From positions 3,224,001 through 3,288,000 of the forward strand of contig NC_086097.1 of assembly GCF_963921235.1 (NCBI RefSeq): a DNA stretch of 64,000 bases, given 5' to 3'. This DNA is from Mobula hypostoma (Eukaryota). This document shows, piece by piece, positions 4,301 through 60,770 of the stretch (positions within the stretch are counted from its first letter, which is position 1; every line of letters starts with the position of its first letter). Under the pieces are notes generated by a model. The model saw only the letters and a list, made by a program, of their open reading frames with translations, did no database searches and was not told the origin of the DNA. The position numbers and the translations under genes are program-made.

Positions 4301-5625
4301 ACAGTGTTGCAGCTCTTTCAGAAAACCACCTACAACAGATTCTGACTGCCTTTAACCGTGCATACCACGAAACTTAGACTTACCGTCAATTCCAAGAAGA
4401 CTCAGATCATCTATCAACCGTCACCAATTAAGACAAATCGGATAAAACATCAATTCAACTTGGCGAAATAACCCTGGAAAACATGGACTACTTTCCGTAT
4501 CTTGGAAGTCACCTCTTCTCCAATGTCGACCTTAATGACGAGATCCAACATCGTCTTAAGTGCGCTGGAACAGCTTTTGGATGCCTCCGAACAAGAGTCT
4601 TTCATGATCGTGACATCCGAACAGACACCAAAATGTTAGTGTACAAAGAAGTGGTAATTCCAGTGCTCCTGTATGCATCAGAAACCTGGACAACATACTG
4701 ACGACATCTGAAGGCACTTGAAAAGTTCCATCAACGCTGTTTTCAAAACATCTTAAGTATCAGCTGGGAAGATAGAAGAACCAATGTCAGTGTGCTAAAT
4801 GAAATAAAAACAACAAGCATTGAAGCCTACGTCATCAAGAACCAACTGAGATGGAGCGGTCATGTTGTTCGGATGAAAGACGAACGTCTGCCGAAACAAA
4901 TCTACTCCCAGCTTAAAGAAGGCAGACGTAAAAGAGGCGGACCACAGAAGAGATTCAAAGACGTCTTAAAAGCCAACATGAAGAAATGTAACATCGATAT
5001 CAACAATTGGGAAACCAATGCCAAGGACAGGAAACTCTGGCAAGCCATCAACCGAGAAGGAACAGCAACTTTCGAAGCCAACAGATGTGCAGAATTAGAA
5101 GAAAAGAGAAGAGAATGGAAAGAGAGACAGCAACAGCCAAAGCCCGATCTGTCATCTGGAACTACCTGTCCTGAATGCGGAAGAACTTTCAAAGCCAAGA
5201 TTGGACTCATAAGCCACTTGAGAGCCCATAAGTAGATCAACAGAACGAAGACCATTGTCCTCGACCTCGAGGGATAGCCACGACGACGACGATAAGGAGG
5301 TAAAGGGTGTACACTGAGTGGACAGCCAGCACCTTTTTCCCGGGGCAGCAACGGCTAATGTGAAGGGGCATAATTTTAAGGTGTTGGAGAAAGTATAAGG
5401 AGGGATATTTTACTCAGGGAGTGGTGTGCTTGGAACACACTGGGGAGGTTGTGGTAGAAACAGATACATTAGGAACATATATGAGATTTATTGATAGGAA
5501 CATGGATGAAATAAAAATGGATGGCTAAGTGGGAGGGAAGGTTTAAATTAATAGAGTAGATTAAAAGGTCAGCACAGCATTGTGGTCATAGGGCCTGTAC
5601 TATGCTATAAGGTTCTGTGTTGTCT
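1360..5625 (+). mobile_element. CR1 3' fragment split by the RTE insertion (1360-1423 and 5303-5625)
   Basis: CR1 RT C-terminal sequence (ttggag..aaggaagatgagag..ttaatagaggtgtataag) stops at the RTE TSD and resumes after it, running through to a CR1 3' UTR. Confidence 0.75.
1424..5291 (+). mobile_element. Full-length but inactivated RTE-clade LINE (APE endonuclease, RT, C-terminal C2H2 zinc finger)
   Basis: 11-bp TSD ATAAGGAGGTA at 1413-1423 and 5292-5302; (CGA)n tail. ORF fragments: ERRTALVARELQKFNFDIVTLSETR, GDFTARVG, CGNYRGISLL, AFTDLTKAFD, GVKQGC, QYADD, RWSGHVVRM, CPECGRTFKAKIGLISHLRAH. Many stops and frameshifts. Confidence 0.95.
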
Positions 5626-5861: not shown

Positions 5862-6025
5862 AGCACACACAAATGGCTGGAGGAACTCAGCAAGTCAGAT
5901 ATCATCTGTGGAAATGAATAAAGAGTTGACGTTTCAGGCCGAGACCCTTCTTCGCTACATAATGCTGAGTTCCTCCAGCATTTTGTATGTGCTGCCCCGG
6001 ATTTCCAGCCTCTGCAGAATCTCTT
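5862..6025. mobile_element. Penelope-derived short inverted-repeat element inside a LINE 3' tail
   Basis: gctggaggaactcagca ... tgctgagttcctccagc inverted arms; partial hammerhead-like segment gttgacgtttcaggccgagacccttc. Confidence 0.7.
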
Positions 6026-6228
6026 GTGTTTATGGTTTGTTATTTTGTTTGGGTTGTATATTCTGTATGTACAGTCAGATGACAATAAACTTGGAACTTG
6101 AAGTTAAAAACCAGAATCAGGTTTAAGGAAAAATAAATTTTGTCTGATTCACTACCACTGCTCACCATTTACCATTAATGAGTTTAGAAATAATGAGAAT
6201 GGTTGTTATGTATTTAAATATTTGTACC

Positions 6229-7730: not shown

Positions 7731-8514
7731 TCAGTTCAGTTATTTATCTAAAAACCATTTATAAGTGTGTCTTATAATAATTCTGTCACCTGTAAGTATC
7801 ACAGTAAGGTTATTATCAATGGTGTAAAAGCACCCATTGAAATTCTGTATGTTATTGATAGTTGTACTGGTCATAGTAATCTAGTCTTTCATTGGAACTT
7901 TAACATTTTTTATAATCCACCTGGATTTCATCTCCACTGGATGCTGCATATAAAATGTGAGAGTAATTTTGCTGTTTTGCTGGTGAAGGTGAAGCAGTGA
8001 TGATAAAAATTCATCCAAATGACTGCTCCGGTATATTTTGCAGGGCAGTTGACCACAAAAAAGAAACATGAGGAAGATTAAACTTAGGACAAAGTAGAAT
8101 GGTTTATAGGTGGCTTCTTATTTAGGTATTTGAAAGTTGATTTTAAATTGGATGTGAGGATATAACTGAACTTTGCAGGGTACAAGTCTTGGCATTCTGA
8201 AATCAAGAAAAATAAGTTTAAGTTTAAAGTTAAGTTCGAATTTAATGGTCATTCAACAATACACATGTAACAGTTAAATGAAATAGTGTTGTTCTCAGGC
8301 CAAGGTGCAGCAAACAGTACATGCAGTCACATAGAGTCACAAAAAGAAATAATAATAATAATAAAAATAATATAAACCAAGTCCCTGAGTGTCATGAGCT
8401 GTAGATTGATAGTGTGTGGGTGTTGCCCTGGAGCCACGTTTCTGCAAGAACATGACCACAGCAGTTTGTCATGTTACAGAGGTGCTGAAAACCTAATCTA
8501 AGAATATGAACTGT

Positions 8515-8660
8515 TCGATGCACTCAGCAGATCAGGCAGCATCTGCTGAAAGAGAAATGGTGTTAATGTTTTCAGTCTGACGCCCTTCATCAGAACAGAA
8601 ACATTGACCCTGTTTTTCTCTTCCCACAGATGCTGAGTGTTGCCAGCATTTTCTGTTTTG
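8515..8660. mobile_element. Degenerate Penelope-derived hairpin with a decayed minus-strand hammerhead
   Basis: cagcatctg ... cagatgctg inverted arms; minus strand reads CTGATGA agggcgtcagact GAAA. Confidence 0.6.
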
Positions 8661-12610: not shown

Positions 12611-12939
12611 GGAATTTTATCATTACCTATTACACTGTACTGCTGCTGCACAACATATGCCAGTGATATTAAACCTGATTTGGATTCCGATGAAAACTAA
12701 ACTGTCTAAGTGGAAACAAATCAAGTAGTGGATGGATTGAACAATTGTGGAAAGTGAAACAAGTTAATAACTCAAGAATAAGAACAGATAATATTCGAGA
12801 TACTTGGCAGGTTAGGCAATGTTTGTGGAAAGTGGAATGCAGTTAATGCTCCTGAACGAATGCCCTTCGGCAGAATAATGCAAGCCTTTGTACATTTATC
12901 AGAGATTATCAAACCAAAGAGTCAGTTGTGATTTTATGG

Positions 12940-15900: not shown

Positions 15901-17080
15901 CTGTGTTGGGATCACTTTTTTTTACATTAAATGCCAATGACTTTGATGATGGAGTTGATGGCTTGTGGCCGTTTTGGAGGACAACATGCAGATGGGTGGA
16001 GCGGAAGATAGTTTTGAGGAAATAGGTTACAGAAGGCTTAGGAGAATGGGCAGAGAAATGGCAGATGGAATACAAAGAAAGGATGTGTATGGTCATGCAC
16101 TTTGGTAGAAGAAATAAAAGTCTAGACTATTTTCTAAATGGAGAGAAAATTCAAAAATCTGAGGTGCAAAGGGACTTGGGAGTCCTCGGTGCAGGATGCC
16201 CTAAAGGTTAATTTGTAGTGAGGAAGGCAAATACGATACTAGCATTCATTTTGAGAGGATTTGAATATAAAAACAAGGATCTAATGTCGAGGCTTTATAA
16301 GGCACTGCTGAGGCCTCACTTGGAGTGTTGTGAACGGTTTCCGTTCTCTTGTGAATCCTAGAAGAAAGGATGTGCTGATTTTGGTGAGGGTTCAAAGGAG
16401 GTTCACAAAAATTATTCTGGGATTGAAAGGCTTGTCATATGAAGAGAGTTTGATACCTCCAGGCCTCGACTCACTGGAATTTGGAAGAATGAGAGGTGAC
16501 CTCGTTGCAAGCTGTCAAATGTTGAAAGGCTGCGACAGAGTGGATGTGAAGCGGATGTTTCCTATGGTGGGGGAGTCTAAGACAAACGGATGTAGGATAA
16601 GAATAGAGAGGTATCCTTTTTAGAAAGGAGATGAGGAGGATTTCTTTAGTCAGACAGTGGTGGATCTGTGGACTTTTTGCCACAGACAGCCATAGAGGCC
16701 AAGTCTGTGTGTATATTTAAGGTAGAGATGGATAGATTCTTGATTGGTCAGGGCATGAAGGGATATGGGAAGAAGGCAGAAGATCGGGGACTTGATGGGC
16801 CAAATGGCCTAATCCTAATCTTGCAACACACATCAAAGTCGCTGGTGAACGCAGCAGGCCAGGCAGCATCTCTAGGAAGAGGTATAGTCGACGTTTCGGG
16901 ACGAGACCCTTCGAAGGGTCTCAGCCCGAACCGTCAACTGTACCTCTTCCTAGAGATGCTGCCTGGCCTGCTGCGTTCACCAGCAACTTTGACGTGTGTT
17001 GCTTGAATTTCCAGCATCTGCAGAATTCCTCGTGTTTACGTTTTTAATCCTAATCTTATAATTTATGGTTTTATGGTCTT
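12940..17080 (+). mobile_element. Near full-length decayed CR1 LINE (ORF1 Zn-finger/zipper/SGNH esterase; ORF2 APE-RT)
   Basis: CSVCEMW...ICTRC, VIGDSTVKG, HIGTND in ORF1; LYLNVRRI, GITESW, VMGDFN, NYRPVSLT, GVPQGS, RVQRRFTK in ORF2; CR1 3' UTR. Confidence 0.9.
16823..17044. mobile_element. Penelope pLTR-derived foldback (90-bp arms) with 13-bp TSD
   Basis: Arms 16823-16912 and 16913-17002 are near-perfect reverse complements; TSD TAATCCTAATCTT at 16810-16822 and 17045-17057. Confidence 0.9.
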
Positions 17081-17084
17081 AAGA

Positions 17085-19995
17085 TGTAACGTCCAGTGAG
17101 ACTGTGAGGAAGGACAGGCAGCTGATAGGCCAAAACTGCAGTTAGTGGGATGAGCTAAAGTGTAATGGGGTGAGGCATAATTGAAAAAGGGTGATGGATA
17201 CAGGACTGAAGGTGTTATATTTGAATGCACGCTCTACATGGAATTAAGTAGATAATCTTGTATCGTATTTAGAAATTGACAGGTGTGATGTTGTGGGAGT
17301 CGTGGCTGAAAGAAGATCATAGTGGGGAGCTTAACATCCAAAGCTATACAATGTATCAAAAAGATGGGCAGGTAGGCAAAGGGTAGCTGTGATGGTGTAA
17401 AATAAAATCTAATCTTTCGAAATAGGATCAGAAGATATTGAACCCTTGTGTGTAATGTTAAGAAATGGCAAGGGTAAAAAGACCCTGATGGGAGCTATGT
17501 ACATACGGTGCTGGGTATAAAGTCCTTGGCAGTGGACTGAGCTTTGTGCTTCACATGCTTTTGCAAAAGAGTTGTTGATGAAATCGCCATGAGGAAAGCA
17601 GCCAGTGGGCTGCCTGGTGTTTCACTTTACCCTGTTGAGGTTTTCCACTTCATTCCAGCAGTAGTCATCAGAAATGTGACAGAAGTGACTAGTATGTATA
17701 ATTACACAATAGTATGTGGTGATACACTGGTATAACCACGCGGCTGTTATTCATCAGTAATACGAGGGGTTCTACAGATGCTGAAAATCCAGAGCAACAC
17801 TCACAAAATGCTGGAGGTCAGGCACCATCCATAAAAATGAATAAACAGCTGATGTTTTGGGCTGAGATGCTTCTTCAGGACTGGAGATATTCACCAGTAG
17901 ATTGAGAGGAGATTTGATAGAGGTATACAAAATTATGAGGGGTATGTGCAAGCAGGCTTTTTCCACTGAGGCTGGGTGGGACTACAGCTAGAGGTCACGT
18001 GTTCTCAGTGAACAGAATAAAGTTTAAGGAAACATGAGGGAAACTTATTCACTCAGAGGATTCTGAGAGAGTGGAACAAGCTGCCAGCACAAGTGGTGCA
18101 TGCGAGCGTGATTTCAATCTTTAAGAGAAGTTTGCATAGGTACATGGATGGTAGGAGTATGGAGAGCTTTTCGTACGAGTGCAGGTCAATGGGAGTAGGC
18201 AGTTTAAATGGTTCAGTATACATTAGATGGGTCAAATGGCCTGCTTCTGTGCTGTACTTTTCTAGGACTCTATGAACAGGACTCCAAACAGTAGCCAGCA
18301 TGTGGGATACAAATTATGAGAAATTGAAAAGGCATATAAAAAGGGCAATGTTGCGATAGACATGGGGGATAGTGTGAAGGTAGATTGGGAAAATCAGGTT
18401 GGCAATGGATCCCAAGAGAGGGAATTTGCTGAATGCTTATGAGATGACCTGTTGTTCAATCTACTGGATTTGTGTTATGTAATGAAGTAGACTTGGTTAG
18501 GGAGTTTAAGGTAAAGGAACCTTTAGGAGCCAGTGTTCATAATGTGATATAACTCACCCTGCAATTTGAGAGGGAGAAGCTAAAGTCAGATTACTGAGGG
18601 ATGGGAGAGGTGCTGTCCAAAGTTATTTGGAAAGGAAAACCAACAGGGATGACAGCAGAGCAGCAATGGCTGGTGTTTCTGGGGGAAATTCAGAAGGCAC
18701 AGGGTAGATGCATTCCAAAGATATAGAAGTATTCTAAAGGGAAGATGAGGCAACTGAGGCTGACAAGGGAAGTGAAAGACAGCATAAAAGCAAAAGAGAG
18801 GGTATATAATACCACAAAAATTAACGGAATGTTAGAAGCTTTTAATAACCAACAGAAGACAACTAAATAAGCCATAAGGAGAGAAAAGATGAAATTTGAA
18901 GATAAGCTAGCCAATATTATCAAAGAGGATACCAAAATGTTTTTTTCAGATATATAAGGTGTAAAAGAGATGAGAGTGGATATCGGACTACTGGAAAATG
19001 GTGCTGGAAAGGGAGCAATGGGGGACAAAGAAATGGCAGAGAAACTTCATTATTTTGTGTCAGTCTTCACTGTGGACAATACTAGCGGTATGCTAGAAAT
19101 TGGAGAGTGTCGGGGGGCAGGAGTGTGTGAAGTTGCTATTACTACAGAGAAGGTGCTTCAAAAGCTGAAAAGTTTAAAGATAGATAAATCTCATGGACTG
19201 GACGGACTACACCACAGGGTCTGAAAGAGGTGACTGAAGAGACTGTGGTGGCATTAGTAATAATTGCTCAAGAATCACTAGATTCTGTAACAGTTCAGTA
19301 GGGCCGTGGGATACCAACCCACTGCCCTTTACTGTGCATATTGTCTTGTTTATTATTTATTGTGATGCCTGCACTATTTTGTGCACTTTGTGCAGTCCTT
19401 GGTAGGTCTGTAGTCCAGTGTAGTTTTGTGTTGTTTTTCATAGTTCAGTGTAGTTTTTGTATTGTTCATGTAGCACCATGGTCCTGAAAAATGTCGTCTC
19501 GTTTTTACTGTGTACTGTACCAGCAGTTATGGTCGAAGTGACAATAAAAAGTGACTTGACTTGACTGGAAAATTGCAAATGTCACTCCACTCTTCAGAAG
19601 GGAGAGAGGCAGAATATAGGAAGCTATCAGCCAGATAGTCTGACCTCAGTGGTTGGGAAGATGTTGGAGTTGATTATTAAGGATGAGGTCTTAGGGTACT
19701 TGGAGACACATGATGATATAACCATATAACAATTACAGCACGGAAATAAACCATCTCGGCCCTTCTAGTCCGTGCCGAACTCTTACTCTCACCTAGTCCC
19801 ACCGACCTGCACACAGCCCATAACCCTCCATTCCTTTCCTGTCCATATATCTAACCAATTTAACTTTAAACGACAATATTGAACCTGCCTCAACCACTTC
19901 TGCTAGAAGCTCGTTCCACACAGCTACCACTCTCTGAGTAAAGAAGTTCCCCCTCATGTTACCCCTAAACTTTTGCCCTTTAACTCTCAACTCAT
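17085..19995. mobile_element. Cluster of CR1 fragments (+ strand EN and linker pieces; - strand 3' end at 19715-19995) with a decayed PLE terminus at ~17770-17885
   Basis: CR1 motifs YFVSVFTV, KSHGLDGLH, NFFTQRVVAVWNEL; PLE terminus cagatgctgaaaatcc...ttcaggact. Confidence 0.75.
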
Positions 19996-20049: not shown

Positions 20050-21264
20050 GGAAGAGGAAAGGAGTTAAGGAGCCAGTGCAGATTACCCCTGTGGCTATCC
20101 CCCTCAACAAGAGATAGATCACTTTGGATAATGTTGGGGGCTGACCAAGCAGAGGATAGTCACAGTGGTTGGGTCTCTGGCATTGAGTCTGCCTCTGTGA
20201 CTCAAAGGGAAGTGGGAGAAGTGGTGTGCTGTGATCTTAGGGTTTTCCTCAGTTAGGGGACTGGCCAGGAGGTTCTGTGGGCAAGAACGAGATTTTCAGA
20301 TGGTTAGTTTCCTCCCAAGTGCCAGGGTCTGGAACATCTAAGATTGAGTCCTCAGCATTTTTAATTAAGAGGGTGAACAGCCAGAAGTTGTCGTCTATAT
20401 AGGTACCAATAATGTGGGTAGGGTGAATGATGAGGTTCTGAAAATAGGGAGTTCAGGGAGTTGGATGCTAAGTTAAAGGGCAGGACCTCCAGGGTTGTGA
20501 TCTCTGGATTGTTACCTGTGCTACATGCTGGTGAGGCTAGAACCAGGAAGATTGTGTAGTTTAACACGAGGCTAAGAAGTTGGTGCAGGACGGACGGCAT
20601 AAGATTTTCGGATCACTGGGTTCTCTTCCAGGGAATGTGGGACCTGTATAAAAGGGATGGCTTGTACCTGAATTGGAGGGCAACTAAAATCCTCGTAGGA
20701 AGTTTTGTTAATGCTGCAGAGTGGGGTTTAAACTGGAGTTGCAGGGGGATGGGAACCAGAGTGGCAGAACAGTTCGTGGAGAGGTTGTGGAGACAAATGT
20801 TGGTAAGATCTCAGACAAAGTCAGGAATGAAAAGTTTGAGCATGGTGCAACAGGTGTCCTGAGCTGCATAGGTTTCAATGCAAGAGGTATCGTAGGAAAG
20901 GTGAATGAGCTCAGGGCATGGATCAACACCTGGAATTACAAAGTTGTAATGACTTCATTGCAGGAGGGGCAGGACTGGCGGCTCAATATTTTGAGTTTCT
21001 ATTGTTTTAGATGTGACAGAGCGGGAGGGATTAAAGGAGGAAGGGTGGTGTTACTAGTCAGGGAAAATGTCACAGTAATGCTCAGTCAGGATAGACAGGA
21101 GAACTCTACTAGTGCGGCATTATGGGTGGAACTGAGAAATAAGAAACATATGACCCTGTTAATGGGGCAATATTACAGACCACCCAGCAGCTCCAGGGCT
21201 TTAGAGGCACAAATTTGTAAAAGAGATCGCAGACTGTTGCAAGAAACATAAGGTTGTTATAGGA
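20050..21264 (+). mobile_element. CR1 ORF1 esterase end plus ORF2 endonuclease start
   Basis: DLYKRDGLYLN, FNARGIVGK, RCDRAGGIKGG, YYRPPSS. Confidence 0.85.
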
Positions 21265-22695
21265 ACACATATCAAAGTTGCTGGTGAACGCAGCAGGCCA
21301 GGCAGCATCTCTAGGAAGAGGTGCAGTCGACGTTTCAGGCCGAGACCCTTCGTCAGGACTAACTGAAGGAAGAGTGAGTAAGAGATTTGAAAGTTGGAGG
21401 GGGAGGGGGAGGGGGAGATCCAAAATGATAGGAGAAGACAGGAGGGGGAGGGATAGAGCCGAGAGCTGGACAGGTGATTGGCAAAAGGGATACAAAAGGA
21501 TCATGGGACAGGAGGTCCGGGAAGAAAGACAAGGGGGTGGGGGGGAGAAAGCCTAGAGGATGGGCAAGGGGTATAGTGAGAGGGACAGAGGGAGAAAAAG
21601 GAGAGTGAGAGTAAGAATGTGTGCATAAAAATAAGTAACAGATGGGGTACGAGGGGGAGGTGGGGCATTAGCGGAAGTTAGAGAAGTCAATGTTCATGTC
21701 ATCAGGTTGGAGGCTACCCAGACGGAATATAAGGTGTTGTTCCTCCAACCTGAGTGTGGCTTCATCTTTACAGTAGAGGAGGCCGTGGACAGACATGTCA
21801 GAATGGGAATGGGATGTGGAATTAAAATGTGTGGCCACTGGGAGATCCTGCTTTCTCTGGCGGGCAGAGCGTAGGTGTTCAGCAAAGCGGTCTCCCAGTC
21901 TGCGTCGGGTCTCGCCAATATATAAAAGGCCACATCTTGAGCACCGGATGCAGTATATCACCCCAGCCGACTCACAGGTGAAGTGTCGCCTCACCTGGAA
22001 GGACTGTTTGGGGCCCTGAATGGTGGTAAGGGAGGAAGTGTAAGGGCATGTGTAGCACCTGTTCCGCTTACACGGATAAGTGCCAGGAGGGAGATCAGTG
22101 GGGAGGGATGGGGGGGAATGAATGGACAAGGGGGTCATGTAGGGAGTGATCCCTACGGAAAGTGGGGGTGGGGGGAGGGAAAGATGTGCTTAGTGGTGGG
22201 ATCCCGTTGGAGGTGGCGGAAGTTACGGAGAATAATATGTTGGACCCGGAGGCTGGTGGGGTGGTAGGTGAGGACCAGGGGAACCCTATTCCTAGTGGGG
22301 TGGCAGGTGGATGGAGTGAGAGCAGATGTACGTGAAATGGGGGAGATGCGTTTAAGAGCAGAGTTGATAGTGGAGGAAGGGAAGCCCCTTTCTTTAAAAA
22401 AGGAGGACATCTCCCTTGTCCTAGAATGAAAAGCCTCATCCTGAGAGCAGATGCGGCGGAGACGGAGGAATTGCGAGAAGGAGATGGCATTTTTGCAAGA
22501 GACAGGGTGAGAAGAGGAATAGTCCAGATAGCTGTGAGAGTCAGTAGGCTTATAGTAGACATCAGTTGTCTCCAGAGACAGAGACAGAAAGATCTAGAAA
22601 GGGGAGGGAGGTGTCGGAAATGGACCAGGTAAACTTGAGGGCAGGGTGAAAGTTGGAGGCAAAGTTAATAAAGTCAACGAGCTCTGCATGCGTGC
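21265..22695 (-). mobile_element. 5'-truncated Penelope-like element (Neptune type): RT C-terminus, Cys linker, GIY-YIG endonuclease, pLTR
   Basis: CKRNRCYTC, GVIYCIRCSRCGLLYIGET, RFAEH, LEEQHLIFRLGSLQPDDMN; 14-bp TSD AGGTTGTTATAGGA at 21251-21264 and 22696-22709. Confidence 0.92.
21324..21361 (-). ncRNA. Minimal type-I hammerhead ribozyme in PLE pLTR
   Basis: Minus strand UAGUC-CUGACGA-AGGGUCUCGGCCU-GAAA-CGUC-GACUG: helix I UAGUC/GACUG, both core boxes, ACGU palindrome as helix III, GUC triplet. Confidence 0.85.
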
Positions 22696-22719
22696 AGGTT
22701 GTTATAGGAGGTAATTTTA

Positions 22720-28859: not shown

Positions 28860-31800
28860 GTAAGACATAGAGGCAGAATTAGGTCATTTGGCCCTTTGAT
28901 TCTGTTCTGCTATTCGATCGTGACTGATTTATTATCCCTCTCAACCCCACTCTTCGATTTTGCTCTGTAAACTTTGTGACCCTGACTAATCAAGAACCTA
29001 TCAACTTCCACTTTAAAGATACGCAAAGACTTGACCTCCACAGCCACTGGTGGTAACAGATCCCACAGATTCACCACCATCTGGCTTAAGAAAGTCTTCC
29101 TCATCTCTGTTTTAAATGGATGTCTTTGCATTCTAAGGCTGTGCCCCCTGTTCCTAGACTCACTTACTATGGGAAACATCTACTCTATCTAGGCCTTTCA
29201 ATATTCAACAGGTAATGTCAGATTAATGTTGTTAACTGGATCATCAGATTTGTGGACGACACTAAGATTGGATCGGGGCCAGCTGGGAAAATAGCCTGAA
29301 AAATGACAGATGCAATTTAATGCAGACATGCAAGGTGTTGTGCTTCAGTCGGACCACACAAGGTAGGTCTTGAACATTGAGTGATAGGGCACTGAGGAGT
29401 GCGATAGAACAAAGAGATCTGGGAGTATAAGTCCATAATTCATTGAAAGTGGTGTCACAGGTTGAGAGGGTCATTATAAATTGAAGTATTGAATACAGGA
29501 GATGGGATGTTATGCTGAAGTGGTATAAGACGTTAGAAAGGCCTAATTTGGAGTATCGTGTGCAATTTTGGTCACCTACCTCCAGGAAAGATGTAAGTAA
29601 GGTTGAAAGAATACAGAGACAATTTACAGTGATGTTGCCAGGACTGGAGGACCTGAGTTATGAGGAAAGATTCAATAGGCTGGGACTTTATTCCTTGGAA
29701 CATAGAAAATTAAGGGGAGATCTGTTAGAGGTAAACACAATTATGAGGGGTATAGATAGGGTAAGTGCAAGCAGGCTCTTCCCATTGAGGTTGGGTGGGA
29801 CTGCAACTAGAGGTCATGGGTTCGGGGTGAAAGATGAAAAGTTTAAGGGGAACATGAAGGGAAACTTTTTCACTCAAGGGGCCATAAGAGTGTGGAACAA
29901 GCTACCAGTGCCAGTACTGCATGCCAGCTTGATTTCAGTGTTTAAGAGGAGATCAGATAGGTTTATGGATGGTAGGGGTATGGAGGGCTATGGTACAGGT
30001 TGTTGGGAGTAGGCAGTTTAAATGGCTTGGCACTGACTAGATGGGCCAAGGGGTCTGTTTATAGAACGTAGAAGAGGACAGCACAGGACCAAGCCATTTG
30101 GCCCACAATGTTATGCCAAACCAGATAAAAACTAGTCTAAAACACCCACACACTAATCTCTCCTACTGACACCATGTCCATGTCCCCCCATCTTCCTTTC
30201 ATCCATGTGCCTATCCAAACGTCTCTTAAAAGCCTTCCTGAGAAAGCTAAAGAAATTTGGCCTGTCCCCTAAAACCCTCACTAATTTTTATAGATGCACT
30301 GTAGAAAGCATTCTTCTAGGGTGTATTACAACCTGGTATGGAAGTTGTCCTGTCCAAGACCGGAGGAAGCTGCAGAAGATCGTGAACACAGCCCAGCACA
30401 TTACACAAACCAATCTTCCATCCTTGGACTCACTTTACACCTCACGCTGTCAGGGCAGTGCCGCCAGGATAATCAAGGACACGACCCACCCAGCCAACAC
30501 ACTTTTTGTCCCTCTTCCCTCCGGGAGAAGGCTTAGGAGCTTGAAGACTCGTACGGCCAGATTTGGGAACAGCTTCTTTCCAACTGTGATAAGACTGCTG
30601 AACGGATCCTGACCCGGATCTGGGCCGTACCCTCCAAATATCCGGACCTGCTCTTGGTTTTTTGCACTACCTTACTTTCCTTTTTCTATTTTCTATTTAT
30701 GATTTATAATTTAAATTTTTACTATTTACTATCGATTTGTACTCCAGGGAGCACGAAGCGCTGAATCAAATATCGCTGTGATGATTGTATGCTCTAGTAT
30801 CAATTGTTTGGCGACAATAAAGTATAAAGTATGTATTACCTTTACCACCATACCAGGCAGTGCATTCCAGGCGTCCACAACTCTCTGAGAAAAAGTATAA
30901 CCCTTACATCCCCTTTGAACGTACCCCCCTCTCACCTACAATGCAAGCCCTCTGGTATTAGACGTTTTAACCCTGGGATACAGATACTGTTTGGTACACT
31001 ATCTATGCCTCTCATAGTCTTATAAAGCTCTGTCAGATCTTCCCTCAGCCTCCACCACTCCAGAGAAAACAATCGAAATTTTTCAGGCCTCTCGTGATAG
31101 CACATGCTCTCTAAACCAGGCAGCATCTCGGTAAACCTCTTTTGCACCCTCTCCAAACCATCAACACCCTTCCTATTGTGGGGCGGCCAGAACTGTGCGT
31201 AATACTCTAGATGTGGCCTAACCAAAGTTTTATAAAGCTGCAGCATAACCTCCTGAATTTTGAACTCAATGCCTCGACTAATAAAGCAAACATTCTGCAA
31301 GCCTTCTTAACCACCTTATTGACCGGTGTAGCCACTTTCAAGGACCTATGAACTTGGATCCCAAGATCTCTCTGCTGAGCAACACAGTTAAGGAACTTGC
31401 CCTCAACAGTATACTGTCTCCTTGCTTTTATCCTAACGAAGTGCAAGACCTCACATTTATCTGGGTTAAGACCTCGCATTCGTCAGCCCATATCTACAAC
31501 TGATCTATATCATGTTGCATTCTTTGCCAGTCTTCTGTAGTATCGACAACTCTACCAATCTTCCCATGAGGGACTTTGTCAAATGCCATACTAAAATCCA
31601 TGTAGACAATATCCACTGCCTCATCAATCTCTCTCATCACCTTGCCAAAAAACTCAATCCAGTTGGTAAGGCACAACCTGCCATGCACAAAGCCATGCTG
31701 AATGTTCCTCATTCAGCCATGGGTTTCCAGATGCTGATATATCCTATCCCTAAGAATGTTCTCCAGCAATTTCCCTATACCTGATGTGAGACTCACCAGT

Positions 31801-36000: not shown

Positions 36001-37255
36001 TTAGATTAGATTAGATTAGATTCAATTTTATTGTCATTGTACTGAGTACAGATACAAAGCCAATGAAATGCGATTAGCATCTAACCAGAAATGCGATTAG
36101 CATCTAACCAGAAATGCAAAGAATAGTGTTATTTACAAAATAACTGCAAATAAAAAGTAAGTGCTACAGCACACAAATATAAAAGTACTGAGACAGTACA
36201 ATATGGATGCAATACTGCTTAGCGCTGTGATGTGAGGTTCAGCAGGGTCACAGCTTCAGGGAAGAAGCTCTTCCTGTGCCTGCTGGTGCGGGAGCGGAGG
36301 CTTCTGTAGCACCTACCGGATGGGAGGAGAGTAAAAAGTCCATGGTTAGGGTGAGATGCATCCTTGTTAATGCTTTTCGCCCTGCCCAGGCAGCGTTTAT
36401 GATAGATGTTCTCAATGGTGGGCAATTGGGTGCCGATAATTCGCTGGGCAGTTTTCACCACACGCTGGAGTGCTTTGTGGTCTGATACGGGGCAATTGCC
36501 ATACCACAGTGAGATGCAGTTGGTGAGTATGCTCTCAATGGTACAGCGGTAAAAGTCCGTCAGTATCCTGGGACAGAGGTGAGCTTTCTTGATGCTCCGC
36601 AAGAAATAAAGGTGCTGTTGCACCTTTTTGATCAGGATGGAGGAGTTCAGGGATCAGGTGAGATCCTCGTAAATGTGGACACCAAGGAATTTGAAGCTTG
36701 ATACACGCTCCACTACAGCTCTATTGATGTAGGACGTGAGTGTGGCTCCTAGCATGCCTGAAGTCCACAATGATCTCCTTGGTCTTCTGGGTGTTAAGGG
36801 CAAGGTTGTTATCAGCACACCATGCGGCCAGGTGCTGGACCTCGTCCCTGTAGGCTGTCTCGTCATCCCCTCTGATCAGGCCAACCACCTTGATGTTGTC
36901 TGTGAACTTAATTATGGAGTTAGAACCATGTACAGGAAAGCAGTCATAGGTGAAAAGGGAGTACAGAAGAGGGCTCAGCACACAGCCGTGAGGCACACCG
37001 GTGTTCAGGGTGAGAGTGGAGGAGGAGAGGTTGTCTAACTTAACTGATTGGGGTCTGTTAGTCAGAAAGTCCAAGGTCCAATTGCAGAGGGATGAACTGA
37101 TACCAAACTGGCGAAGTTTGGCGATCAGCTTGGAGGGGATCACAGTATTGAATGCCGAACTAAAGTCAGTGAACAGCATTCTGACGTAAGAGTTGGGGCT
37201 GTCCAGGTGGGTCAGGGCAGAGTGAAGTGCTGTGGAGATGGCGTCCTCTGTTGGA
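36001..37255 (-). mobile_element. Rex1/Babar LINE, 5'-truncated (RT domain)
   Basis: [49 protein letters not shown]; (ATCTA)n tail; 23-bp tandem duplication at ~36066-36115. Confidence 0.9.
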
Positions 37256-37736
37256 ACTGGCATTGACTTCTGAAGTCTGATGCCCTAAGCTGTAATAGTG
37301 TCATGTTAACTGCTATGCTACTATGGTGCTCTAAATGGAGAGACATTACTGGTTAACACATCTAGAATTACGGGATATAATCTAAAAATGAGATTTTGGC
37401 TTTTGGAATTAAGTTATAGATCGTTTCTGTATGAGGGAAGAAGTACAAAGTTAGAACTCCTTTCCATAGATGATTTTGGGCTATTTGTTAATTTTCAAAT
37501 TGATAATTAACTGCTATAATTAACTTTTCAGATCTTCATTATGGAAGCAAAGTAAATTAATTTAGGAATCTACAAGAGTCTTCTGAAGTTTGCTATTGAT
37601 TGCAGTTGAATACATTCCAGATCTTGCTGATATTGTTACTGGAATAATGTGGGAAACTAATCTTCAATAAAAAAAAATTTTGATATTTTAGCTGCTGGAG
37701 CAAGCGTAATTTATAACTTTTTTTTTCTTTAAACAG

Positions 37737-39314: not shown

Positions 39315-40812
39315 TGTCATGGTCCGGTCCGTGAAGTCCCCATTCCGGTTTATGGTCCGGTCCATGGACTCAGGACTCTGGGTCTTTCAGCTGACCTTTG
39401 TTTGAGTTAATCATAGGCACCTGATTCCCATCTTTGGGCTTGCAATATAAGTAGCCTTGGGATTGAGTGTGGGCTGCTGGTTTGTCTCGTCAATCCCCCT
39501 TGGACCAACCTGCTGATGGAAGGCTAGTGAAACCATTTGTGATGTCTAGGCCTGGTTGGAGGACAACTGTTTCATGGACCCTTGTTGCCACTCGTTGGAG
39601 TGGTCTTTGTGGTATGGATTTGGCTGTTTCCTGGGCCAGCTGAGTGGCTACCAGCCACTCCGAGCTAGGTAGGGATCCGGCTGTTTCTGTAGCCAGCTGA
39701 GGTTGCTGGCTGAACTGAGACTTGGAGCTACCCCAGAGCAGAGATGGAACTGTCTGTTGTTCTTTGGCGTTTGTCTCTTCTTGTCCTTGCCTCCATGGGG
39801 TAAGCCAGGCCATTTTTCCGTTGCCCTGCAGGGGGATCTGTCTTGTCTTGTCCTTGCCTCTGTTGGGTAAGTCCAGCCGTTCTGCCATTACCTGACGGAG
39901 AGACCTGTCCCACCTTGGTGTGGAGATGAAGTTGAGTCCCAGCTTGTCGTAGGATAAGTCCCAGCTCTATGTCTATGTTCTGTCCTATCTCAGGTTTGTG
40001 TTGTGTTAAAGATGAGTCCTGGCTTGTTGAAGGATAAGTTCCGGCTCTATGTTGATGTTCAGTTCCCAGTCTGTCTCTCAGCTCCAGTCTCCGAGTTATC
40101 AGCCTCCGCATTTCAAGACGAAGAACCCAAGCCTCGAGGGTCCCAAGCCAAGCTCCAAAAACCCAAGCCTCGAGGATCCCAAGCCAAGCTCCAAGAACCC
40201 AAGCCTCGAGGATCCCAAGCCAAGCTCCAAGAACCCAAGCCTCGAGGATCCCAAGCCAAGCTCCAAGAACCCAAGCCTCGAGGATCCCAAGCCAAGCTCC
40301 AAGAACCCAAGCCTCGAGGATCCCAAGCCAAACTCCAAGAAACCAAGCCTCAAGGATCCCTAGCCAAGCTCAAGACCTAAGATCCCAGCCTGCAGCCAAG
40401 CTCAAGGCCCAAGACCCCAAGCCTCAAGAATCCCAAGCCAAGCTCAAGGCCCAAGACCCCAGCCGGCAGCCAAGCTCAAGACCCAAGACCCCAGCCTCAA
40501 GCCAAGCTCAGGCCTCTAGACCCCAGCCACATCCTGTCCTGAAACCATGTCATGTTCTTGCCTGGTTCCGGGGTCTGAGCCTGAGGCAAGACCCAGGTTC
40601 TAGGTCCTTGTCCAGTCTCGGGCTCGGAGTCCAAGCCTTGTCTCCTAGTCCATGGTTCCTAGTCTGGTCCCGCATTCCCTAGCCAACTCTGCGTTCTTGT
40701 CCCTGCTCCTTGCCTGAATCCGGTCACGTCCCTACTCTAGTCAAGTCCTGTTCTTTGTACTTCAGTGTCTGTGTCTTGCATTTGGGCCCGTTTCCAGCAC
40801 CCTATTGTGACA
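39315..40812 (+). mobile_element. Large solo-LTR-like element (1498 bp) with internal minisatellite
   Basis: TGTCA...TGACA termini; 5-bp TSD CTAAA (39310-39314 and 40813-40817); aatca..cacctg..tataa LTR-like promoter segment. Confidence 0.85.
40123..40374. repeat. 36-bp tandem repeat, ~7 copies, decaying into shorter variants up to ~40530
   Basis: Unit GAACCCAAGCCTCGAGGATCCCAAGCCAAGCTCCAA read directly from the sequence. Confidence 0.95.
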
Positions 40813-46070: not shown

Positions 46071-47869
46071 AAATGATTGTAGTTGTGCAGTAATGGCCTT
46101 TTTAATAAAGATTGACTTAGACCAGGGGTTCCCAACCTGAAGCCCACAAACCCCTTGATTAATGATATTGCTCCATAACATAGAGAAGGTTGAGAACCAC
46201 TGATTTACTGTTTGTAGACTAAAAGCATAGTAGAATAGAATAATGCATTGTTTTTCTTGTTTATAGTGCTCCCATGCTTTGAAAAGTCCTATCTGTCCAG
46301 GCTTTACACTGTGAATGAGTTCATTACTGACAAGTTGCACTTGCCTCTTTGGATACACACTGATGTTAGATCCCAGCCATTGTTTACAACACTCTTTCCA
46401 GATCTAGGTTCATATGAAGATGACCTTTTAGCCGACACTTCATGGCAATTCCTTTTCTCCATGCTCTACAAAGAGCAATATAAAAATTGTGTATCACAGT
46501 TTGAACTGGATTGAAATGCTATTTAGTAGCATTCCTGTGATTATAGAAACTCACATTTTACCTGCTTGAAGAAAAATATCATTATATTTTTTGACAAAAA
46601 TGTTTATTTTGTAATTATTAATGAAGAAATTCTCATGTGTGTGGACATGGATTAGGAACAGCAGTTCCTGCTAATGTTACTGATTAATGCTTTTCTAAAC
46701 TCATTTCTCATAATCATAATAATCATTACGTTGTCAGAGATAAGGTGATGAAAGTAAAATTAAGAAAAATGCCCTATTCCCTGTACTAAAAAGTCTACGA
46801 TATGCCCATTCTATTGCAGATTTGTGATTTGACTTGAATGATTTTGTGAGAGCAATTTCAATGTGGTGCTAAATTTGAAGGTCACTAACAGGAATTTAGT
46901 GCACAAAAAATCAACTGTCATTTAAATTGTTATTTGCCTCATGGAAAACCAAATGATAGGTAAATCATCTTAAAGGTGATGTCAATAACCGATGGTTGAT
47001 GGTTTGGGGAAACGGATTTGGGGAAATCAATTTGTTTCCCTTCCTTTTGAAGTAATAAAATGCATTTTACCTCAGAAAAAAATTAGTGTTTATTTATTTA
47101 GAGGTACATTGTGGACCAGGCCTTGCGGCCCAGTGAGCCACACTGGCCAGCAACCCACCTGTTCCGGAGGCCCAATCAGCGAGGGAGCAAAGCACAGTGA
47201 ATTAAATAAAAGTACAGAAGGGACAAGCGTGGGGGTCATTGTTGGGAGTAGGAGTGTCAGGCTTTGGCTCAAAGGAGGCTTCAGCTCAAAAAGGCATTGG
47301 CTTTGGCTGAGCTTCTGTTAAAGTTCCCTTGTTGTTTTCTCTTATCGTACCTGGTGTAGTAAATAACCGCTGTGAGCTCTTCGTGCCGGATGTTGGAGTC
47401 CTGGGAGACCCAGAGTCTCCCAGTGAACTACGTCTGCATGAAGTGCATCCGGCTGCAGCTCCTTGAAGACCGCGTTAGGGATCTGGAGCAGCAGCTGGAT
47501 GATCGGCTTGTACAGGAGAGTGAGGAGACAATCGATCAGAGTTACAGGGAAGTAGTCACCCCGAAGGTGTAGGAGGCGAGTAGCTGGGAAACTTTCGGGA
47601 GAAATGGAAATATGGATAGTTAGCTAGCACAGAAAACCCTTGTGTCCATTCCCCTTAGTAATAAGTATAGCATTTTGGACACTGTTGTGGGGATGACCTC
47701 CCAGGGAATGCCACGGAGACCGGGTTACTGTCACTGAGCAGGTATCCGTGGTGCAGAAGGGTAAAGAGGGAGAAGAGGGGAGCCGTAGTAATACGGGACT
47801 CAACAGTGAGGGGAACAGACAGGAGATTCTGTGGACGTGAATGAGACACCTGGATGGTATGTTGCCTGA

Positions 47870-49900
47870 GGAACACTCATTATGCGCTGGAGGAACTCAG
47901 CAGGTCAGTCAGCATCAGCTGAAAAGATTAGTCGACGTTTCAGGCCGAAACCCTTCGTCAGGACTGAAGGAAGAACTTTGGGGAGGGTTTGAAGAATGCT
48001 GGTAGTTGAAAAAAACAGCAATTTGAAAGACAAAGGAGTGGGGGAGGGGAAGCAGGGAGGTGATTGGCGGGAGAACAATGCGCAGTAGTAGAAGGAGGCG
48101 GAACTATGAGGGAGGTGATGTGAAATAGGGATAGAGGAAGGGAGGGGGAGGGAATTACTGGAAGTTGGAGAATTCTATGTTCATACCAAGGGGCTGGAGA
48201 CTACCTGGACGGCATATAAGGTGTTGCTTCTCCAACCTGAGTTTAGCCTCATCATGGCAGTAGAGGAGGCCATGTACGGACATATCTGAATGGGAAGCAG
48301 AGTTGAAGTGGGTGGCTACCGGGAGATCCTGTCTTTTGTGGTGGACGGAGTGGAGGTGCTCGACAAAGCGGTCCCCCAATCTGCGTCGGGTTTCACCGAT
48401 GTAGAGGAGGCCGCACCGGGAGCACCAGATGCAATAGGTGACCCCAACAGACTTACAAGTGAAGTGTTGCCTCACCTGGAAGGACTGTTTGGGGCCCTGA
48501 ATGGTGGCAAGAGAGGAGGTGTAGGGACAGGTGTAGCACTTACGCTTACAGGGATAAGTGCCGGATGGGAGATCCGTGGAGATGGACGTGCGGATAAGTG
48601 AGTCGCGGAGGGACCGATCCCTGTGGAAAGCGGAGGGGGCGGGAGAGGGAAAGATGTGCTTCGTGGTGGGGTCCTGTTGAAGGAGGCGGAAGTTGCGGAG
48701 GATAATGTGCTGGATCCGGAGGCTGGTGGGGTGGTAGGTGAGGACAAGGGGAACTCTGTCCCTGTTGTGGTGGCGGGAGGATGGGGTGAGGGCCGAAGTG
48801 CGGGAAATGGAGGAGATGCGGGTGAGGGCACCATTGATCACCGTAGAAGGGAAACCACGATCCTTAAAGAAAGAGGACATTTGAGATGTCCTGGAACGGA
48901 AAGCCTCATCCTGGGAGCAGATGTGGTGGAGACGTAGGAACTGGGAATAGGGAATGGCATTTTTGCATGTGGCGGGGTGGGAAGAGGTATAGTCGAGGTA
49001 GTTATGCGAGTCAGTGGACTTGTAGAAGATCAGTGGACAGTCTGTCTCCAGAGATGGAGACCGAGACATCGAGAAAGGGGAGAGAAGTGTCAGAGATAGA
49101 CCAAGTGAATTTGAGGGCTGGGTGGAAGTTTGAATTAAAGTCGATGAAATTGACGAGCTCAGCATGGGTGCAGGAAGCAGCACCAATGTAGTCGTCAATG
49201 TATCGAAGGAAAAGTTGGGAGCAGTACCAGAATAGGTTTGGAGCACAGACTGTTCCACATAACCAACGAAGAGGCAGGCATAGCTGGGTCCCATGCCAGT
49301 TCCCATAGCCACACGCTGAGTCTGAAGAAAGTGGGAAGAGCCAAAAGAGAAGTTATTAAGTGTGAGAACCAGTTCCGCCAACCGGAGGAGGGTAGTGGTG
49401 GTGGGGAACTGGTGAAGTCTATTATCCAGGAAGTAGCGGAGGGCTTTGAGGCCTTCTTGATGGGGAATGGAGGTGTATAAGGATTGGACATCCATAGTAA
49501 AAATGAAATGGTTGGGACCGGGGAACTGGAAGTTATTGAAGAGGGCATGGGATGTATCCCGGATGTAGGTGAGGAGGGACTGAACAATGGGTGACAAAAT
49601 GGAGTCCAGGTAGGCAGATACAAGTTTGGTGGGACAGGAGCAGGCAGAAACTATGGGTCTATCTGGACAGTCAGGCTTGTGTATCTTGGGGAGGAGGTAA
49701 AACCGTGCGATATGGGGTGTGGGAATAATGAGTTTAGCGGCTGAGGATGGAAGGTCTCTGGAGTTGATAAGGGCAGTGATTGTGCGGGAGACAATGGTTT
49801 GATGTTTTTTGGTGGGGTCCTGTTCCAGGGGTAAGTAAGAGGAGGTGTCAGAGAGCTGCCGTTTGACCTCAGTGAGGTAGAGGTCCGTCCGCCAGACTAT
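47870..49900 (-). mobile_element. Penelope-like element (Neptune type), 5'-truncated, RT + GIY-YIG pseudogene
   Basis: FYLLPKIHK..RPIVS, MDVQSLYTSIPH, AMGTGMGPSYA, out-of-frame RYIDD, CKRKCYTC, GVTYCIWCSRCGLLYIGET; pLTR at 47870-48150. Confidence 0.93.
47930..47965 (-). ncRNA. Minimal type-I hammerhead ribozyme in PLE pLTR
   Basis: Minus strand AGUC-CUGACGA-AGGGUUUCGGCCU-GAAA-CGUC-GACU. Confidence 0.83.
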
Positions 49901-49948
49901 GTTGGTATGTTATGGTGTGCTGCCTCCCAGCTGCCAGGGTCAGGGATG

Positions 49949-50667
49949 TAAACAACAGGAATTCTGCAGATGCTGGAGATTCAAGCAACATACATCAAAG
50001 TTGCTGGTGAACGCAGCAGGCCAAGCAGCATCTATAGGAAGAGGCGCAGTCGACGTTTCAGGCCAAGACCCTTCGTCAGGACTAACTGAAGGAAGAGTGA
50101 GTAAGGGATTTGAAAGTTGGAGGGGGAAGGGGAGATGCAAAATGATAGGAGAAGACAGGAGAGGGAGGGATAGAGCCGAGAGCTGGACAGGTGATAGGCA
50201 AAAGGGGATACGAGAGGAGCATGGAACAGGAGGTCCGGGAAGAAAGACAAGGGGGGGGGGTGACCCAGAGGATGGGCAAGAGGTATATTCAGAGGGACAG
50301 AGGGAGAAAAAGGAGAGTGAGAGAAAGAATGTGTGCATAAAAATGAGTAACAGATGGGGTACGAGGGGGAGGTGGGGCCTTAGCGGAAGTTAGAGAAGTC
50401 GATGTTCATGCCATCAGGTTGGAGGCTACCCAGACGGAATATAAGGTGTTGTTCCTCCAACCTGAGTGTGGCTTCATCTTTACAGTAGAGGAGGCCGTGG
50501 ATAGACATGTCAGAATGGGAATGGGATGTGGAATTAAAATGTGTGGCCACTGGGAGATCCTGCTTTATCTGGCGGACAGAGCATAGATGTTCAGCAAAGC
50601 GGTCTCCCAGTCTGCATTGGGTCTCACCAATATATAAAAGGCCACATCGGGAGCACCGGACGCAGTA
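49949..50667 (-). mobile_element. Penelope-like element 3' fragment (same subfamily as 21265-22695)
   Basis: Near identical to 21265-21960; GIY-YIG C-terminus plus pLTR. Confidence 0.92.
50047..50084 (-). ncRNA. Minimal type-I hammerhead ribozyme in PLE pLTR
   Basis: Minus strand UAGUC-CUGACGA-AGGGUCUUGGCCU-GAAA-CGUC-GACUG. Confidence 0.83.
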
Positions 50668-59469: not shown

Positions 59470-60770
59470 TTCAAGCAACACACATCAAAGTTGCTGGTGA
59501 ACGCAGCAGGCCAGGCAGCATCTCTAGGAAGAGGTACAATCGATGTTTCGGGCTGAGACCCTTCGTCAGGACTAACTGAAGGAAGAGTTAGTAAGAGATT
59601 TGAAAGTGGGAGGGGGAGATCCAACATGATAGGAGAAGACAGGAGGGGGAGGGATGGAGCCAAGAGCTGGACAGTTGATTGGCAAAAGGGATATGAGAGG
59701 ATCATGGGACAGGAGGCCGAGGGAGAAAGAAAGTGGGAGGGGGAAGCCCAGAGGATGGGCAACAACGGATGGGGTACGAGGGAGAGGTGGGGCATTAGCG
59801 GAAGTTAGAGAAGTCAATGTTCATACCATCAGGTTGGAGGCTACCCAGACAGAATATAAGGTGTTGTTCCTCCAACCTGAGTGTGGCTTCATCTTTACAG
59901 TAGAGGAGGCCATGGATAGACATATCAGAATGGGAATGGGACGTGGAATTAAAATGTATGGCCACTGGGAGATCCTGCTTTCTCTGGTGGACAGAGCGTA
60001 GGTGTTCAGCGAAACGGTCTCCCAGTCTGCGTCAGGTCTCGCCAATATATAGAAGGCCGCATTGGGAGCACCAGACGCAGTATATCACCCCAGCCGACTC
60101 AGAGGTGAAGTTTCGCCTCATCTGGAAGGACTGTTTAGGGCCCTGAATGGTAGTGAGGGAGGAAGTGTAAGGGCATGTGTAGCACTTGTTCCGCTTACAA
60201 GGATAAGTGCCAGGAGGGAGATCAGTGGGGAGGGATGGGGGGGACGAATGGACAAGGGAGTTGTGTAGGGAGCGATCCCTGCGGAAGGCGGGGGGGAGGG
60301 AAAGATGTGCTTAGTGGTGGGATCCCGTTGGAGGTGGCGGAAGTTACGGAGAATTATATGTTGGACCCGGAGGCTGGTGGGGTGGTAGGTGAGGACAAGG
60401 GGAACCCTATTCCTAGTGGGGTGGCGGGAGGATGGGGTGAGAGCAGATATGCGTGAAATGGGAGAGGTGCGTTTGAGAGCAGAGTTGATGGTGGAGGAAG
60501 GGAAGCCCCTTTCTTTAAAAAAGAAGGTCATCTCCCTCGTCCTGGAGTGAAAAGCTTCATCCTGAGAGCAGATGTGATGGAGACGGAGGAATTGCGAGAA
60601 GGGGATGGCATTTTTGCAAGAGACAGGGTGAGAAGAGGAATAGTCCAGATAGCTGTGAGAGTCAGTAAGCTTATAGTAGACATCAGTAGATAAGCTGTCT
60701 CCAGAGATAGAGACAAAAAGACAGAGGGAGGTGTCGGAAATGGCCAGAAAGGGGAGGGAGGTGTCAGAAA
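59470..60770 (-). mobile_element. Penelope-like element, 5'-truncated
   Basis: Same subfamily as 21265-22695; SHSYLDYSSSHP, IPFSQFLRL, RVPLVLTYHP; short duplication at the 5' junction. Confidence 0.92.
59537..59574 (-). ncRNA. Hammerhead ribozyme variant (helix III palindrome mutated to ACAU)
   Basis: Minus strand UAGUC-CUGACGA-AGGGUCUCAGCCC-GAAA-CAUC-GAUUG. Confidence 0.65.

Follow-up and report, generated by a model that had tools for sequence, protein, structure and literature searches.

A minimal type-I hammerhead motif behind the endonuclease of Neptune-type Penelope-like elements in a ray genome

Results

The element carrying the motif

The stretch of DNA analysed here (64,000 nucleotides, hereafter the window) consists mostly of repeats. 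It holds a tandem array of a 36-bp unit with open frames on both strands (40085-40408), a 177-aa frame that ends in a C2H2 zinc finger below the Pfam cut-off (4702-5235) and is placed just behind an RT frame (3231-4037), and other retroelement fragments with RT, ALKBH8_N-like and GDSL esterase-like frames (29485-30612, 36721-37284, 51988-53158 and 60680-61381).

The hammerhead motif that is the subject of this work is carried by a 5′-truncated Neptune-type Penelope-like element (PLE) of 1.43 kb, located at 21265..22695 on the minus strand and assigned to a subfamily that we call A. The element was recognised by tblastn with relatives, and its bounds were given by a 14-bp target-site duplication, an exact 14-mer that occurs only at 21251 and 22696 and flanks the 3′ end (21251..21264) and the 5′ end (22696..22709). 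Its five best protein matches, with 65-79% identity, are named from Hypanus sabinus and Mobula hypostoma. Broken RT-thumb frames, detected by tblastn with relatives, precede the remnant of a C-terminal frame (21668..22189, minus strand, stop codon at 21668-21670), which contains a CX4CxxC linker and a GIY-YIG endonuclease. The latter was identified by Pfam (25.8 bits for a cut-off of 22.6) and in alignment A2. Behind the stop codon, a pyrimidine-rich 3′ UTR of 306 nt (21362..21667, minus strand), delimited by its sequence and by alignment of subfamilies A and B, leads to the motif at 21324..21361. The element is then closed by a tail (21265..21323, minus strand), which comparison with other tails shows to be of the short form, ending 64 nt after C17. 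The motif is therefore 306 nt behind the GIY-YIG stop and 64 nt before the end of the element. This is the segment that forms the pLTR, so that the location in a PLE terminus, as claimed by the original prediction, is correct, with a single 3′ end being present here.

The Neptune-type assignment was also supported, the placement being made by motifs, namely a C-terminal GIY-YIG domain and a CX2-5CxxC linker of Neptune length. Such a linker is the feature given for Neptune and Nematis by Craig et al. 2021 (PMC8557442), and in alignment A2 its finger reads CKRNRCYTC in subfamily A and CKRKCYTC in subfamily B (see below). The finger is separated from the next conserved C by 23 residues; the Neptune1_Nv row has 27 at this place and the Nematis_C4 row 7, as counted by eye on four rows of figure S2 of the same paper. 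Within the endonuclease, A2 places the CCHH residues at C83, C86, H121 and H127. The order RT then GIY-YIG was found in the B copy, where an RVT_1 match below the Pfam cut-off is followed by GIY-YIG, and tblastn with the full-length relative P0012 covers residues 214-822.

Anatomy of the motif at 21324..21361

Read on the minus strand from 21361 to 21324, the motif is UAGUC CUGACGA A GGGU CUCG GCCU GAA ACGU C GACUG. It was classified as a minimal type-I hammerhead by its sequence, a topology descriptor, fold evaluation and model R1, which gives it 52.8 bits, this copy being itself among the sequences used to build R1. Helix I has 5 bp (21357-21361 paired to 21324-21328). It is followed by the CUGACGA core block (21350-21356, C3 being 21356) and by an extra A at 21349, between 9 and 10.1, after A9. 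Helix II has 4 bp (21345-21348 with 21337-21340) and is closed by a G10.1-U11.1 wobble: the 10.1-11.1 pair is formed, as G-U, and the usual G-C state is absent. Next to the GAA (21334-21336), helix III at 21330-21333 is the loopless ACGU palindrome GAAACGUC. C17 is 21329, so that cleavage is predicted between 21329 and 21328. Of the core consensus positions given by Perreault et al. (PMC3088659), C3 U4 G5 A6 N7 G8 A9 and G12 A13 A14 A15.1 U16.1 H17, all 13 are present in the motif. We therefore read the same letters, and the same predicted cut after GUC, as in the minus-strand hammerhead first proposed, and its minimal type-I form with a palindromic helix III is equally apparent from the full core, the short helix I, the closed helix II and the ACGU.

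Other copies and remnants in the window

Equivalent motifs had been announced at 47930, 50047 and 59537. All three exist (47929-47966, 50047-50084 and 59537-59574, all on the minus strand), but the palindrome has been lost from the third. The motif at 47929..47966, found by descriptor, fold and model, belongs to subfamily B; its palindrome is intact and its helix I has 4 bp. It is part of a 5′-truncated subfamily B element with RT and GIY-YIG domains (47864..49902, minus strand), recognised by Pfam, tblastn and a 9-bp target duplication (47855-47863 and 49903-49911), whose RT is frameshifted around the YIDD motif. The motif at 50047..50084, found by the descriptor, is a subfamily A copy. Its carrier element, at about 49949-50668, has a long tail and ends 103 nt after C17. 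The last motif, at 59537..59574, also belongs to subfamily A and was found by descriptor, fold and tblastn in an element at about 59470-60771. It has ACAU for ACGU (G16.2 to A), which breaks the helix III palindrome, together with a canonical G10.1-C11.1 pair. Among the four intact copies of the window, three have the G10.1-U11.1 wobble and three the ACGU palindrome.

The region 47864-50668 consists of two independent PLE insertions of different subfamilies, about 40 bp apart and in the same orientation. We rejected a reading of the two as one pLTR-ORF-pLTR unit, since a separate 9-bp duplication flanks B, whose likeness to A is 75%. No complete pLTR-ORF-pLTR unit was found in the 64,000-nt window, where the motifs are single 3′ ends of truncated copies. 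The 50047..50084 hammerhead lies in the same orientation as that of B, 2118 nt upstream of it, and the two have matching ACGU and AGUC/GACU sequences. Judging from these letters, a hypothetical read-through transcript over both copies could in principle form a mixed dimer.

Shorter remnants were also detected. One is a head-to-head pair of hammerhead-tail ends of 222 bp (16823..17044), supported by the model, the tail profile and a 13-bp target duplication (16810-16822 and 17045-17057). Its arms, one short-tailed and the other long-tailed, are joined inside the core at 16912/16913, and CUGA is lost from both. The insert with its duplication (16810-17057) sits within the 3′ end of another repeat. 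A degenerate inverted pair at 5867..6040 has a partial hammerhead and tail on the minus strand (5867-5958) and an inverted tail on the plus strand from 5963. In an older inverted pair of a third subfamily (8501..8659), a degenerate hammerhead is found on the minus strand (8558-8600) and the plus arm starts at GAAA. A degenerate hammerhead-tail remnant at 17790..17887 (minus strand), detected by the model and the tail profile, has lost G12, and a further single piece at 12786-12875 was faintly seen with the 16-motif model and the tail profile. We considered whether the short inserts start at the cut site, and rejected this for the three inverted pairs, whose forward arms retain bases 5′ of C17. 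Insertions of this inverted, truncated form are known for PLEs, as is an optional tail (Craig et al. 2021, PMC8557442). Six 3′ ends could be measured in the window, and they fall 64-72 nt (four ends) or 103-105 nt (two ends) after C17; these two classes match the optional 30-40-bp tail described for PLEs. A block of the tail, at 21275-21310 and equivalent positions about 20-55 nt behind the cut site, is kept in all subfamilies of the window, even where the hammerhead has decayed, and is a candidate binding or priming signal.

Occurrence expected by chance

The loose pattern CTGANGA-N10-40-GAAA matched the window 15 times, against a mean of 7.98 in shuffled sequence, and 2 of 100 shuffles reached 15. 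The enrichment of this pattern alone is slight. Searches with hammerhead models had been suggested as a check. The Rfam scan of the whole window returned no match at E≤1; the topology descriptor, by which the helices are demanded as well, found five sites against a mean of 0.095 in 200 shuffles. Sites having in addition a palindromic helix III numbered three, against a mean of 0.015 (200 shuffles).

A pattern scan was also made on contigs of other origin. No match was found in the viral contigs scanned, and three in contigs of prokaryote genomes (L001, L002 and L003). The L002 motif is placed behind a PLE ORF, L001 has the full motif with no ORF detected, and L003, which has the core only, was excluded. 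L001 and L002 belong to a bacterial metagenome-assembled genome with contigs bearing PLE-type hammerheads, and these contigs are probably animal DNA in a bacterial bin.

Conservation between element lineages

Subfamilies A (21k copy) and B (48k copy) were compared over aligned columns. Identity was 35/38 in the hammerhead, 153/308 in the UTR, 43/63 in the tail and 230/307 in the endonuclease coding sequence. The hammerhead differs in this respect from the UTR (Fisher p 1.6e-7), from the tail (p 0.007) and from the endonuclease coding sequence (p 0.015). Selective conservation of the motif across two subfamilies, as had been proposed, is thus upheld for the transposing lineages (35/38 against 50% in the UTR), but not for the single copies, which are truncated and whose core shows CpG decay.

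From 459 related stretches confirmed in a scan of metagenomes, the best 80, all of them metagenome contigs, were analysed. The 25 motifs that the descriptor found in these 80 loci are all in sense orientation and follow the endonuclease within 700 nt (43,791 nt in total). The antisense strand of this downstream DNA gave none, nor did 74,251 nt of sense-strand sequence upstream of the endonuclease. Twenty-three of the motifs come from the 63 loci that extend at least 300 nt downstream, and two from shorter loci. The other 40 of these 63 loci fail the strict descriptor; in most of them the motif is there but has one or two changes in the core. All 25 motifs have the extra A, G10.1 and a loopless helix III of 4 nt, albeit up to 8 nt were permitted. 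Helix III is an exact palindrome in 19 of them (AUAU in one) and AUGU in four, the descriptor script favouring palindromes wherever a choice existed. In twelve related loci, a further motif is found upstream in the opposite orientation, which is what one would expect of inverted partners. The same topology and position were thus found in elements that are 40-53% identical in the endonuclease and whose helix sequences differ.

Sixteen motifs were aligned (alignment A3): the four window copies, 10 of the 20 distinct descriptor matches and 2 of the 3 pattern matches. Pairing was found in 92.6% of cells, compared to 22-38% in slid controls. Helices I and II covary: of 11 pairs, 9 have substitutions in both partners. 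Since the descriptor or pattern by which rows entered A3 itself requires helices, there is some circularity in these pair counts. What A3 shows is that the sequence of the helices is free to vary; it is no proof of helices independent of how the rows were chosen. The extra A is present in 16/16 rows, and the 10.1-11.1 pair is G-C in 12 and G-U in 4. The invariant positions are the catalytic ones, for which the rows had been selected.

A core change, U4C, was found in 21 of 60 equal-length matches of one related Neptune-like family, mostly in one upstream sequence type; this count excludes 18 of 78 matches, namely those that differed in length or family, those that were weak and a few more. The carriers are L017:1874-1915, L082:753-794 and 19 further matches. 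In a natural U4C hammerhead, activity was considerably lowered in vitro, yet enough for viroid infectivity (PMC3088659). The U4C subfamily has thus spread while bearing a change that is reported to weaken cutting.

Abundance and variation in sequencing runs

Among the 24 runs listed, 17, under four organism codes, hold at least half of the words of 21200-22700, and runs X18-X20 a small share. Contigs matching 49915-50200 numbered 71,471 in X1 and 6,097 in X9, which we guess to be RNA. On this segment, a single read was obtained from raw DNA run X21 and none from X22. Contigs of other subfamilies depart from the reference en masse at 50047/50048 and at 50081-50083, which are the helix I ends, and contigs also depart at 49950, the tail end; these points are among the 12 loose-end positions listed for X1 and X9 (six from X1). 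Several contig joints of depth 15-65 link 50082-50083 to 50045-50047, the two hammerhead ends, and one joint of depth 49 links 50051, the base after C17, to 49950, the tail end.

Depth-weighted changes of CpG type in X1 reach 3.9-7.0% at C17, G16.2, C15.2 and G8; at three CpG positions that lie beyond the core, the figures are 9.0-10.6%. Positions 15.2 (5.3%) and 16.2 (5.1%) are changed to much the same degree, a symmetry that decay after insertion would produce. Variants above 15%, among those listed, affect 0 of 22 core and helix I positions and 18 of 229 positions elsewhere, a difference that is not significant (p 0.18). At 11.1, C accounts for 18.8% of X1 depth and G10.1-U11.1 for the majority, about 81%; these X1 shares are rough, contig depth not being copy number. 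No G12 change occurs among the 40 X1 variants listed, which suggests that U11.1 was inherited from master copies rather than produced by decay.

Folding and predicted cleavage

Minimal hammerheads (min-HHRs) have been reported in the pLTRs of metazoan PLEs, including Xena, Poseidon and Neptune of fish (Cervera & de la Pena 2014, PMC4209133). The class that the original prediction cited as established, PLE pLTR hammerheads presumed to act as dimers through their palindrome, has therefore been described in fish since 2014. According to this literature, a monomer cannot close helix III, and two copies swap strands, ACGU pairing with ACGU, to form a double hammerhead. The 21324 monomer, in a nearest-neighbour calculation, favours an inactive fold in which the core GACG pairs with CGUC, at −11.0 kcal/mol for each strand. 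The double hammerhead has −11.5 kcal/mol for two strands and is not the energy minimum, the tertiary energy of the core being outside the model. The fold of the motif is no better than that of shuffled sequence (z −0.61), and none of the seven stretches folded beats its shuffles (z from +0.04 to −1.39).

Published activities of PLE hammerheads are weak or conditional. A tested min-HHR monomer remained uncut, and dimers and trimers were cut weakly (Cervera & de la Pena 2014, PMC4209133). Cleavage of dimers is reported by Lunse et al., cited in PMC6765202, and 1 of 9 Xenopus dimers was cut (Li et al. 2026, bioRxiv 10.64898/2026.07.22.740005). The Anolis Poseidon hammerhead cuts only with the protein of the element (Frangieh et al. 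2024, PMC11167929). In the same study, C3G/G8C rescue demonstrates real hammerhead chemistry in the Poseidon element, the PAc hammerhead can be dispensed with when insertion takes place in vitro, and read ends at the site are absent from Anolis RNA-seq. The function of PLE hammerheads was called unclear by Craig et al. 2021 (PMC8557442).

Discussion

The motif at 21324 has the letters and the topology of a hammerhead, stands behind an endonuclease, and is conserved across element lineages. The best explanation, which we consider likely, is that it is the minimal type-I hammerhead of endonuclease-bearing PLEs, located in the pLTR-forming segment of a very abundant Neptune-type family of a ray, probably a myliobatiform. 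These copies may be, or may formerly have been, catalytic. In tandem masters, the motif would cut slowly and under some conditions, trimming transcripts that read through or are multimeric, and most of the RNA used for insertion would stay uncut at its 3′ motif. The presence of an intact motif and tail at 21324 implies that the template RNA was uncut or re-joined there. The 21324 copy itself would belong to a dead insertion, a single 3′ end carried along passively, with no partner nearby and probably no role for the host. Several findings count against this explanation: the calculated preference of the monomer for an inactive fold, a folding no better than that of shuffled sequence, the G10.1-U11.1 wobble of this copy, the non-significant avoidance of core and helix I by common variants, the 40 of 63 related loci that fail the strict descriptor, the partial circularity of the pair counts, and 5′ joints of the three inverted mini-inserts that miss the cut site.

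Neptune hammerheads might even have been selected for slow cutting, since the 3′ copy must survive reverse transcription. This idea, which we regard as rather unlikely, draws on the majority of G10.1-U11.1 in two ray subfamilies that are 75% alike and on the related spread of U4C. Wobble and U4C together hint that slow cutting is tolerated or favoured.

Alternatively, the motif may derive from a hammerhead but be kept mainly as a structural or protein-binding signal together with the tail block, cutting being vestigial or selected to be weak. By simple sequence logic, each intact genomic copy with a tail came from an RNA that was uncut or re-joined, and G10.1-U11.1 makes up about 81% of X1 contig depth. 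The 21 of 60 matches with U4C, a change reported to lower activity in vitro (PMC3088659), would also fit, as would the reports that hammerhead mutants insert normally in vitro and that no Anolis RNA-seq ends were seen (PMC11167929), or that Naiad elements proliferate without the motif (PMC8557442). Against this, the constant positions of the 16 aligned motifs are the catalytic ones (the rows having been chosen for them), the palindrome persists through ACGU, AUGU and AUAU, which is sensible only for the dimer geometry, and C3G/G8C rescue was obtained in a Poseidon element (PMC11167929). We consider a mainly structural role unlikely.

It is very unlikely that the motif is a parasite of the element, in which short hammerhead-plus-tail units, similar to retrozymes, would follow a cut-and-circle cycle of their own. 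The four short hammerhead-tail inserts of the window, one of them with a 13-bp target duplication, the contig joint of depth 49 from 50051 to 49950, and the origin in PLE termini that Li et al. 2026 (bioRxiv 10.64898/2026.07.22.740005) give to animal retrozymes speak for it. However, we saw no such units in tandem array in the window, the 21324 copy is attached to coding sequence, and the short inserts correspond to the inverted, one-tail-long form of ordinary 5′-truncated PLE insertions (PMC8557442), with joints that destroy the core. Finally, chance likeness, or descent alone without selection on the motif, is hardly tenable. In its favour, common descent links the four copies of the window, the loose core pattern shows scarcely any enrichment and Rfam gives no match. 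Against it, the same topology and place recur in elements whose helix sequences differ and whose endonucleases are only 40-53% identical, three strict matches stand against 0.015 expected, and the zero counts in control strands speak against a descriptor artefact.

We thus retain the minimal PLE hammerhead as the preferred reading. By itself, the ray motif brings little and no new principle. Convenient test material is nevertheless provided by an abundant family that varies naturally at 11.1 and by a compatible pair 2.1 kb apart, and if the slow-cutting reading is true, the wobble and U4C variants would offer a graded series for probing the role of PLE hammerheads.

Comparison with known systems

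Elements of the Neptune clade as described by Craig et al. 2021 (PMC8557442) share with those of the window the RT, the CX2-5CxxC linker, a GIY-YIG domain with CCHH and the long linker, as well as 5′ truncation, an inverted truncated partner and the optional 30-40-bp tail. They differ in that the window has no full-length or tandem copy, and the clade was assigned here by motifs. The Poseidon element PAc of Anolis carolinensis (PMC11167929) likewise carries its hammerhead in the pLTR region, and the tail behind it can end at either of two points. It belongs to another clade, however, without the linker finger, and its ORF begins inside the hammerhead.

Animal non-LTR retrozymes (bioRxiv 10.64898/2026.07.22.740005) contain a type-I hammerhead related to PLE termini, and one from a chondrichthyan is reported. 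They are tandem non-coding units, whereas the 21324 motif is a single copy behind coding sequence. The motif was ruled out as a non-LTR retrozyme on these grounds, with no tandem units in the window.

Neither sharks nor rays are named in those parts of the main text of PMC4209133 that were covered or in one supplement, and in the literature on Penelope hammerheads in sharks and on elasmobranch Neptune elements, as far as it was accessible, we found no publication on this ray Neptune family. The min-HHRs of PMC4209133 are among the known systems closest to the motif. They too are type-I, with a helix I of 4-5 bp, one unpaired nucleotide separating 9 from 10.1, a palindromic 15.2-16.2 and no loop 3, and they occur mostly as single copies at truncated elements, with some opposite-strand pairs. 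The difference resides in helix II: G10.1-C11.1 is called highly conserved in that paper, whereas in the ray family, in which helix II has 4 bp, three of the four intact window copies and most of the contig depth have G10.1-U11.1. The ray Neptune family is a new addition to a hammerhead class known since 2014, with a wobble replacing the usual G10.1-C11.1 pair.
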